This document shows positions 5,990 through 35,486 of a DNA stretch of 52,652 bases, piece by piece. Position numbers and translations under genes: made by a program. The notes under the pieces were generated by a model, which had not been told where the DNA came from, searched no databases, and saw nothing but the letters and a program-made list of their open reading frames with translations. Source of the stretch: a bacterium (GTDB taxonomy: Bacteria; Patescibacteriota; Minisyncoccia; UBA6257; JAGOQP01); assembly GCA_021844025.1 (NCBI GenBank), contig JAKBUF010000001.1, forward strand, positions 1 through 52,652. The letters are read 5' to 3'. Every line of letters begins with the position of its first letter. The first letter of the stretch is position 1.

Positions 5990-6475
5990 TTGGGCGCGAT
6001 GCCCGAAGGAGGAGTTGTGAGAACTCAAGATTTATTAAAACTGAATAAGAAAAGGGATATTCAAGCTCTTGATTTAACAGTTTGTGCGTTCATGGTAGCA
6101 TTAAATAATGCCGTTTTAGAAACAACAACCGGTGTTCTGTATAAAACATGGCATGAATTTGATATTTTGAGTAAGGGACTCAATGTTTCTATACAGAAAA
6201 TAGTAACGACCAGTTCCGACAATAAACAGGTATTTAGTGTACATGTAATCATTAGACCTCTGTCGTGGAAGAAGCATGAATATATCAGTATGATCCTTTA
6301 TCCGAGCAATGAAATAGGATGGGGCGTTCTACAATTTTCCATTTTTAATTTGAATATGGAAAATGATCTAAAAAATAGATTCTCTGGATCCAGTTTCAGT
6401 TTCAGGAGAGCGCTACACTTTTACGACGAACAGAATCCTACACAACGTATCATAAAAATAATGAATGAAAACTAA
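5990..6475 (+). CDS. Hypothetical protein
   Basis: 161-aa ORF. The start is uncertain: TTG 5990, ATG 5999, or GTG just after GAAGGAGGAG. It has its own terminator. Confidence 0.45.
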   Translation: MGAMPEGGVVRTQDLLKLNKKRDIQALDLTVCAFMVALNNAVLETTTGVLYKTWHEFDILSKGLNVSIQKIVTTSSDNKQVFSVHVIIRPLSWKKHEYISMILYPSNEIGWGVLQFSIFNLNMENDLKNRFSGSSFSFRRALHFYDEQNPTQRIIKIMNEN

Positions 6476-6511: not shown

Positions 6512-6574
6512 CGAGTAGTAGAAGTTTGCATATTTCATATCAACCGCTTCGCGGTAAGCAAACCTCACTACCCG
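6512..6574. repeat. TIR-hairpin repeat family copy (MITE/REP-like)
   Basis: cgagtagtagaagtttgc...gcaaacctcactacccg. The ends are inverted repeats and are shared with copies at 7004, 7377, 10838, 31604, 42381, 46516 and 47161. Confidence 0.65.
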
Positions 6575-6714: not shown

Positions 6715-7284
6715 TTAGCGAATGATGATAACCCTTTCGCTCGCTGATGTTCCATGCTCAAACCTCACCCTAATCACATTTTTTAATTTCATTCCATTCA
6801 CGTTCCCTGGCCATTCCATAATCACCACCATATGTGGTTGTTTTTTTATTTCAGTAAACCCAATAAGTTCTAGATCTTTTTTTGATTTTAATCGGTATGC
6901 GTCTATGTGCCAAATATTAGAGACAGTGACTTGTGATTGGTGACTAGTGGTTAGGGAATCTAACTTTTCAGTTTTCAATCTTGAATTATACTTTCCCCTT
7001 TCTCCCCCAGTAGTAGAAATGAGTTTCACTACGGGGCATGCTTTCCCCCTTCTCCTCGTTTCGTATCGCTTCGCGATTACGAACGTTGGACTTGCCGCCG
7101 CTGGTTTAATACCAAAATATTGTAAAAATCCCAAAGTAAAGGTCGTTTTTCCTGCTCCCAAATTTCCCTCAAGCAGCACAAACACCGGACCCTGAGAAAG
7201 ACCACTGTGATTGCTAATCTGACGCGCGATTGCCGCGCCTATTTTTTTAGTAACCGCCGGAGAGAAACTGATTATTTTTATCAT
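6715..7284 (-). CDS. tsaE: tRNA t6A37 biosynthesis ATPase TsaE, carrying an in-frame insertion of about 45 aa
   Basis: GNLGAGKTTF P-loop, SPTF, HIDAYRL and EW motifs. The likely start is ATG 7284, because the 11 codons up to 7317 translate the intergenic ATTGAAAATT array. Confidence 0.75.
   Translation of the reverse strand: MIKIISFSPAVTKKIGAAIARQISNHSGLSQGPVFVLLEGNLGAGKTTFTLGFLQYFGIKPAAASPTFVIAKRYETRRRGKACPVVKLISTTGGERGKYNSRLKTEKLDSLTTSHQSQVTVSNIWHIDAYRLKSKKDLELIGFTEIKKQPHMVVIMEWPGNVNGMKLKNVIRVRFEHGTSASERVIIIR
6916..7062. repeat. Composite intergenic-type repeat inserted in frame within tsaE
   Basis: Contains the TIR hairpin cccccagtagtagaaatgagtttcactacgggg (7004-7036). It also carries an attgaaaactgaaaa-type module and a ctaaccactagtcac-type module that otherwise occur only between genes. 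Confidence 0.55.
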
Positions 7285-7376: not shown

Positions 7377-7407
7377 GCCCCGTAGAGAATTTATTCTTCT
7401 ACTGGGG
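7377..7407. repeat. TIR-hairpin repeat family copy (short form)
   Basis: gccccgtagagaatttattcttctactgggg, very similar to 47161-47193 including the flanking aaattgc(t/c)gt and aattg. Confidence 0.6.
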
Positions 7408-7444
7408 ATAATTGAAAATTATTTACTGGTTTTAGAGTGAAGCG

Positions 7445-35438: not shown

Positions 35439-35486
35439 TATTTATAAGCTATCCGTAACTAGCCACTAATCACCGGTCGCTAGTCA

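Follow-up and report, generated by a model that had tools for sequence, protein, structure and literature searches.

Elhai et al. reportedly described, in 2008, cyanobacterial heptanucleotide arrays (STRR) with nested hairpins of 20-40 nt (SDR) that occur also inside genes. To our knowledge, no transposase is known for these STRR/SDR repeats. Rickettsia palindromic elements (RPEs; Ogata et al. 2000) are dispersed palindromes of ~100-150 bp with a conserved peptide that lie in spacers and in frame (PMC10969869). REP and REPIN sequences are imperfect palindromes of ~35 nt with a GTAG motif; they are mostly extragenic, fold as single strands and have RAYT transposases (PMC3116915). Marine Beggiatoaceae carry abundant intergenic direct repeats of the heptamer TAACTGA (PMC4679880).

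The window analyzed here is a 52,652-nt stretch (contig JAKBUF010000001.1 of assembly GCA_021844025.1) from a Patescibacteriota genome that comprises 25 contigs totalling 528 kb, has a G+C content of 40% and is ~90% complete. Within this window, the tsaE gene was confirmed to carry intergenic-type repeat DNA in frame, which would be translated. As with RPEs, the hairpin found in this gene is a dispersed palindromic repeat that lies in spacers and, in frame, in unrelated housekeeping genes of a reduced genome, where the frame is kept and the insertions are compatible with the fold of the host protein. A likeness to the RPEs in this in-frame habit had been drawn in the first-pass annotation and is borne out by the presence of an intergenic-type repeat in the open tsaE frame. 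Unlike RPEs, the hairpin unit is 36 nt long, is found in varied frames and orientations, is embedded in 7-base arrays and belongs to another phylum, with no sequence relation seen. In architecture only, the tsaE and tsaD hairpins resemble the cyanobacterial STRR/SDR repeats, being nested in 7-base arrays; they differ from these in repeat sequence and in phylum, and the hairpins described here have conserved bulges, an order-wide span and a low copy number. Like REP/REPIN sequences, they are GTAG palindromes of ~35 nt in a genome with a Y1 (HUH) transposase gene, but the Y1 protein is not a RAYT, its gene is not flanked by the hairpin family, the hairpins are mostly singlets instead of doublets, and the GTAG lies inside the stem. 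As in the Beggiatoaceae, 7-base direct repeats occupy the spacers of certain lineages; the units differ, and the arrays here also lie in coding frames within genes, whereas those of the Beggiatoaceae are described as intergenic. In comparison with a MITE, the hairpin arms act as inverted repeats; the direct repeat at tsaE is present in a congeneric genome without the element and the tsaD target is itself a repeat. The hairpin extends in-frame palindromic repeats to a further phylum, as a small variant of defined structure.

Our literature search found no description of in-frame hairpin or 7-base repeats in Patescibacteria. New here are a covariance model with an order-wide distribution, paired tsaD and tsaE copies with empty sites, and an allele dimorphism within a species. 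The case is unusually clean, as it combines a structural model, two independent 36-nt insertions in two subunits of one complex, empty sites, and both alleles in one species. It indicates that ultra-small CPR genomes, usually deemed streamlined, let tiny repeats colonize the loops of core genes, and much of the length variation among CPR proteins may stem from translated spacer-type DNA. For annotation and structure prediction, such loops would best be treated as repeat DNA and not as lineage-specific domains.

The tsaE gene and the layout of its loop

The gene was assigned on the basis of Pfam and TIGR00150 profile matches, an AlphaFold2 (AF2) model, a Foldseek search and an identical coding sequence in other assemblies. 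Its features are as follows.

6715-7284, minus strand: tsaE coding sequence, 189 aa, ATG at 7284, stop at 6715-6717
6919-7062, minus strand: loop of 48 residues, ETRRRGK...VTVSN, that connects the SPTF strand to the HxDAYRL strand and is encoded entirely by repeat DNA
7041-7055, minus strand: purine-rich 7-base units GGAGAAG GGGGAAA G, 5' of the hairpin, encoding RRRGK; comparable with the G001 site
7005-7040, minus strand, sense in the tsaE mRNA: 36-nt allele-specific insertion CATGCCCCGTAGTGAAACTCATTTCTACTACTGGGG (CATGCC...CTGGGG), a bulged hairpin, encoding ACPVVKLISTTG
6990-7004, minus strand: units GGAGAAA GGGGAAA G, likewise purine-rich and on the 3' side of the hairpin, encoding GERGK; 14 of 15 positions identical to 7041-7055
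6962-6989, minus strand: TATAAT TCAAGA TTGAAAAC TGAAAAG, spacer-type GAAAAC/GAAAATT 7-base units by word enrichment, with a homologous stretch in allele B
6927-6954, minus strand: CTAACCA CTAGTCA CCAATCA CAAGTCA, a CTARYCA 7-base array, encoding LTTSHQSQV

In profile searches, the product matched PF02367 at 2.5e-25 and TIGR00150 at 73.5 bits (cut-off 60.1), and both models aligned to it as two pieces with the middle omitted. All four motifs of the family (the P-loop GxxGxGKT, SPT(F/Y), HxDxYR and EWP) are intact, the third reading HIDAYRL, and the product is predicted to have the TsaE fold. The AF2 model, built with 63 sequences, had a pLDDT of 84.5, with values above 90 at 135 residues, and Foldseek returned a probability of 1.00 for 5np9, 1htw and 6n9a_E, with matches to YdiB, YjeE and T. 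maritima TsaE. Residues 76-122 had a pLDDT of ~50 and were without secondary structure. An AlphaFold prediction, which the first-pass annotation had proposed for locating the insert, thus returned a confident TsaE fold with the insert as a disordered loop. That annotation was also right that a 48-aa peptide, encoded at 6919-7062, intervenes between SPTF and HxDxYRL in a TsaE protein as recognized by PF02367 and TIGR00150.

The insert occupies the far tip of the beta-hairpin that links SPTF to HxDxYR. In the TmTsaBDE complex, TsaE contacts TsaB and TsaD via the SPT(F/Y)T peptide, Tyr82, helix alpha3 and the beta5-beta6 link, and the turn joining the SPTF and HxDxYR strands is not among the contacts listed (PMC6009658). 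On the structural model, the insert would be expected to point away from the TsaB/TsaD interface. As to the other components of the pathway, TsaC/Sua5 (PF01300) was not found in four of four genomes of the genus and was present in 10 of 17 other relatives. A search for TsaB (TIGR03725) gave no match above the cut-off in 21 genomes, the matches obtained falling on TsaD itself. Because these MAGs are 85-100% complete, TsaC and TsaB are best described as not found rather than absent; TsaD and TsaE are conserved despite this. The first-pass annotation's description of tsaE as essential is an assumption, although both tsaE and tsaD evolve clearly under purifying selection.

Misassembly was excluded on the basis of independent assemblies. 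The 570-nt coding sequence recurs without any difference in another MAG, GCA_023474645.1, and in three assemblies from ENA (ERZ27236928, ERZ27237541 and ERZ27237587), making five assemblies in all from different samples, and the occurrence of the same insert allele in each indicates that it is not an assembly error.

The loop is a patchwork in which (GGNGAAA)x2 units flank the hairpin on both sides and are followed by (TGAAAAN)x2 and then by (CACNANT)x4. The sequence ATTGAAAACTGAAAAGTT at 6962-6979 belongs to the GAAAATT/GAAAACT word class, which is strongly enriched in spacers. For the word AATTTTCAGT, 21 occurrences were counted in spacers and one in coding sequence, and an exact 15-mer copy from the 6962-6989 units lies at C4:4469. 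The sequence CTAACCACTAGTCACCAATCAC at 6933-6954 is part of the CTARYCA array. Strict two-unit matches to CTARYCA number 17 genome-wide, against ~0.8 in shuffled sequence, and 15 of these 17 are intergenic. One lies at 35459-35486, in agreement with the resemblance first noted between this module and the spacer repeat at 35446-35486. A looser CTARYCA regular expression did no better than shuffles (70 hits versus 55).

Empty sites and two tsaE alleles

The first-pass annotation had assumed that TsaE orthologues have only a handful of residues at this site. This does not hold among relatives, in which the loop measures ~8-30 aa from the KxY end of the SPTF strand to HxDAYR and is variable and K/R-rich. 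In 38 of 38 relatives with a match, TsaE aligned as two blocks with the insert skipped. In G001, a member of the same genus, the same site contains purine-rich GGGGAAA-type units (GGGGAAGGGGGAAAGGGGAAAGGGGAGAG / AAGGGGAAGGGGGAAAGGGGAAAGGGGAGAG) and no hairpin. The 15-nt direct repeat that surrounds the tsaE hairpin is therefore also present in a genome without the element, and need not be a target-site duplication. The closest TsaE protein, P0002, has EKLNSLITNHKSQATISD in common with the product of the window; its DNA shares the GAAAAG and CTAATCA-type arrays and has neither the hairpin nor the purine units.

P0002 and near-identical variants represent a second allele (allele B), obtained from three MAGs (GCA_027423055.1, GCA_027422975.1 and GCA_027447085.1). 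The allele-B contigs are ~99% identical to the window genome over clpB, a 243-aa gene and the spacer, and are identical again just downstream of tsaE. Between these flanks lies a divergent segment.

6905-7236, minus strand: tract of ~30% difference between tsaE alleles A and B, with flanks ~99% identical (contigs L021, L038 and L039)

This tract of ~330 nt covers the 5' two-thirds of tsaE, and the remainder of the gene is ~90% identical. Within the P-loop block the alleles are 72% identical, a value as low as that between species of the genus, and most of the differences in this block are synonymous. Such divergence within nearly identical flanks indicates that the species holds two deeply diverged tsaE alleles, one of which carries the hairpin. 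The simplest reading is that recombination with an unsampled relative would have produced this dimorphism. Because allele B is not isogenic with the window allele, differing by ~30% over 330 nt, the hairpin may have come with an imported allele. Comparison of alleles A and B gave an omega of 0.13 across 141 core codons and of 0.84 across the 27 loop codons common to both. These values point to purifying selection on the TsaE core and to near-neutral evolution of the loop. The three allele-B contigs all end shortly after tsaE.

Alignment, which had been put forward as a way to find empty-site alleles, did find them: the 36-nt hairpin is missing at the tsaE site in the congeneric species G001, G002 and G003 and in allele B. 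As the hairpin has no counterpart in any of these, the allele-specific piece amounts to the 36 nt at 7005-7040. The allele-B array CTAATCA CTAACCA CAAATCA CAAGCCA is homologous to the CTARYCA array of the window gene, and the GAAAAC and CTARYCA arrays, being common to allele B, are older than the hairpin. The original description of the segment as a composite of three repeat modules therefore stands as regards its nature as repeat DNA, but not as regards a single 147-nt insertion, because the arrays are shared with allele B or G001 and only 36 nt are specific. The hairpin landed within an existing 7-base array and not in a tight turn, at a site where relatives already have a hypervariable loop made of repeats, and judging from these alignments it appears to be the only recent part of the loop. 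With a unit of 36 nt, its insertion could not shift the frame. By inspection, four of the six reading frames of the unit are without a stop, with TAG in one frame per orientation.

The hairpin family and its other hosts

A covariance model, R1, was built from 14 short copies of the hairpin (alignment A2). The stem has the form CC-N-GTAG-x-GAA / TTC-T-x'-CTAC-T-GGG, with two conserved one-base bulges, both on the 3' arm. In the alignment, 97% of cells are paired, compared with 51-60% for a shifted partner column, and five stem pairs show double changes, including x:x' as T:A, A:T or C:G. R1 finds 23 copies in the 528-kb genome. The copy in tsaE is matched at 7004-7037 on the minus strand with 48.4 bits (E 1e-8) and has a predicted folding energy of -15 kcal/mol, in accord with the hairpin module initially placed at 7036-7004 on that strand. 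Exact-pattern copies in the window number three, with none expected by chance. Two copies flank tsaE.

7377-7408, plus strand: intergenic hairpin copy with a GAAAATTGGAAATTGCTGT leader, upstream of tsaE, R1 score 49.4 bits
6512-6574, minus strand: long-form hairpin copy downstream of tsaE, in which the stem is extended and a CGCGAAGCG mini-hairpin is present, found by regular expression and with a compensatory stem GGTTTGC/GCAAAC

The upstream copy has an identical counterpart at the same place in allele-B contig L021, and contigs L021 and L039 lose similarity at the downstream long-form copy. Long forms measure 55-90 nt, with ends as in the short forms and inner stems with compensatory changes. 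Their interiors recurrently contain GCGAAGC-type mini-hairpins, examples of this type being ACCGCGAAGCGGT at 6540-6556, in the long-form repeat, and ATCGCGAAGCGAT at 7066-7080, within tsaE just upstream of the insert.

The AAAGCAT leader of the tsaE hairpin is common to copies at C4:8880, C18:2183 and C4:5439, and GAAAATTGGAAATTGCTG, the left flank of the tsaD copy described below, is a leader common to five intergenic copies. These common leaders fit a process in which leader and hairpin may be copied together between arrays. Eight of 17 short copies adjoin GRAAATT-type units, for which the background is 0.1 units per 80 nt. Copies are mostly singlets, with one inverted pair (C21:5983-6049 and 6085-6144), and lie sense or antisense to transcription in roughly equal numbers, with no orientation bias. 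The encoded peptides vary with frame and orientation (ACPVVKLISTTG, PSSRTKFTTGG and KSRSERSSTTG). Searches against Rfam 15 found only tRNAs in the window and nothing relevant at E<=1 around tsaE. The idea that the hairpin mimics an anticodon loop was dropped, as the hairpin loops are not conserved.

A second in-frame copy was found in tsaD.

C2:16291-17505 (L027:1501-2715), minus strand: tsaD, with an antisense hairpin at C2:17013-17045 between HLEGHL and LIVSGGHT

This hairpin is surrounded by an (AATTTCC)n array; it is in frame, and its translation reads PSSRTKFTTGG. Comparison with P0126 and P0127 revealed a clean 36-nt difference within the array, and G001, G002 and G003 have short loops at the insert site. 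Each of the species' seven strain variants carries the hairpin, and two of them have seven extra residues, NHLPLTA, beside it, equivalent to 21 nt or three 7-base units. The gene is under purifying selection (omega 0.10), and its insert is predicted by AF2 to be disordered, with residues 152-184 at a pLDDT below 50 against 86.6 overall. Since the copy is fixed in these variants and absent from the sister species, an insertion within this lineage is documented.

Among close relatives, the R1 hairpin was detected in 13 of 40, including G005 with 13 copies. Across the order, it was found in 28 of 151 sampled genomes, spanning 19 families and mostly at 1-3 copies per genome. Four of 21 copies fetched from relatives are in frame, in TrmD (G005 and G012), the C-terminal domain of GyrA (G040) and GrpE (G012). 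The TrmD copies, at L052 (G012:C1:130450-130482) and L055 (G005:C15:2614-2646), occupy the same loop in two other genera. There the gene is 70.7% identical between G005 and G012, and the hairpin, at 28 of 30 positions, is its best conserved 30-nt window. A TrmD-like ORF in the genome of the window (C13:3290-3964) has a 7-base array in apparently the same loop. At ten loci, from genomes with one or few copies, neighbors read by eye included no obvious common gene that might encode a mobilizing enzyme.

In at least nine further large ORFs of the window genome, arrays of 7-base units occur in frame without a hairpin. Named from motifs only, array-bearing ORFs apparently include IleRS, ValRS, LeuRS, KsgA, MnmA and TrmD among others. 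Large housekeeping ORFs with such arrays lie at the following coordinates.

C2:35802-39407: array-bearing ORF
C19:882-3176: array-bearing ORF
C21:14208-16742: array-bearing ORF
C11:2779-5271: array-bearing ORF
C14:5193-5984: array-bearing ORF
C2:17696-20581: array-bearing ORF
C18:11170-13536: array-bearing ORF

The in-frame arrays, (GGAAATT)n, (GAAAATT)n and (AAGTTAT)n, would yield peptides that resemble NFQFPISNFQ or KVIKLKV. The initial claim that the modules of the tsaE loop otherwise occur only between genes is thus correct as to enrichment in spacers, but no restriction of this kind exists genome-wide, given these ORFs and the tsaD hairpin. The MnmA-like ORF also holds a different small hairpin, CCTCTCTGTGGGAGG.

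Origin of the loop and competing explanations

We favor the interpretation that the tsaE loop is translated repeat DNA accumulated in layers, to which we assign a probability of about 75%. The turn between SPTF and HxDAYRL would be a permissive surface loop that, in this CPR family, is built of tandem 7-base repeats. These arrays would grow and shrink by slippage, and selection would keep changes to multiples of 3 nt, typically 21 nt. A small dispersed hairpin, consisting of a 5' leader followed by a bulged stem, would later have entered one array, leaving 12 added residues in a disordered loop well away, along the beta-hairpin, from both the ATP site and the contact with TsaD, where they would be tolerated and not required. 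Our best guess is that the hairpin moves by recombination or template switching between 7-base arrays, or by means of an enzyme that recognizes a folded single strand. The data show that the loop consists of repeats, that empty sites exist, that the hairpin is allele-specific, that the gene is intact and constrained, and that the loop is predicted to be disordered. Slippage, selective neutrality and hairpin movement are the processes that we infer, and in our reading the harmlessness of the copies in permissive loops accounts for their persistence. No target duplication could be called at tsaE or tsaD, because the targets are themselves repeats.

Two alternatives concern the history of the tsaE segment itself. 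It is possible, and we hold this tentatively, that homologous recombination brought in the whole central part of tsaE, together with the hairpin, from an unsampled relative in which the insertion had occurred. The ~30% difference between the alleles over 7236-6905, within flanks that are 99% identical, would be expected from such an exchange, as would synonymous sites near saturation (pS 0.52). Either allele could be the import, however, and an import would relocate the insertion event while leaving the nature of the insert unchanged; the tsaD copy, moreover, is present in all seven strain variants and absent from the sister species. It is highly improbable that the segment is an assembly artefact or that tsaE is a decaying pseudogene still open by chance. 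Repeats are prone to misassembly, the allele-B MAG contigs break just downstream of tsaE, and TsaC and TsaB were not detected, but the 570-nt coding sequence is the same in five assemblies from different samples, the TsaE motifs are intact, omega is 0.13 and the core fold is confidently predicted.

A different alternative concerns what maintains the hairpin. It could be a selected cis-element, a site at which a protein or nuclease binds folded RNA or single-stranded DNA, with a regulatory role, for example in joint control of the enzymes of tRNA position 37, with its coding capacity a by-product. Conservation of the stem, its bulges and the sequence extends over 19 families at 1-3 copies, compensatory changes maintain pairing, the copy upstream of tsaE does not differ between the two allele backgrounds, and the TrmD hairpin is conserved beyond the surrounding coding DNA (28/30 versus 70.7%). 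Order-wide conservation at low copy (28/151) fits such an element at least as well as it fits junk, and of six hosts seen with an in-frame copy, three are enzymes for tRNA position 37. We nevertheless regard this explanation as unlikely: the orientation is mixed (sense in tsaE, antisense in tsaD), the in-frame hosts include GyrA and GrpE, the ten loci have no common neighbor gene, there is no Rfam match, and the position-37 pattern was spotted post hoc. Judging from the sequences, tsaE also appears to work without the hairpin, both in allele B and in every other species. The fuller proposal, that the GTAG hairpin is a conserved cis-element for a trans-acting factor across the order, that selection has preserved its nucleotides even within coding loops, and that the tsaD, tsaE and trmD copies join position-37 enzymes in one post-transcriptional or DNA-level circuit, is more doubtful still. 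Should the hairpin prove functional, it would count as a new cis-element conserved within an uncultivated phylum.

A REP/RAYT system was also considered and is unsupported, because the only candidate is a Y1 protein of IS200 type with unrelated end hairpins and no co-occurrence with the GTAG hairpin. This sole Y1 transposase (C7:16892-17251; L026:1462-1908) is a 148-aa IS200/IS605-type protein that matches NF033573 at 148.5 bits and the RAYT model at 36.7 bits, where the cut-off is 80. The hairpins that flank its own gene are unrelated to the GTAG family, and across relatives the hairpin and the Y1 gene do not co-occur; G005, with 13 hairpins, lacks a Y1 gene. Neither a RAYT nor any other cognate transposase could be linked with the hairpin. 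At G000:C19:15144-15434, in a separate observation, a hairpin copy lies between the two units of a ~126-nt tandem duplication, both of which contain CCACAAGGGGAAAGTAGGG.
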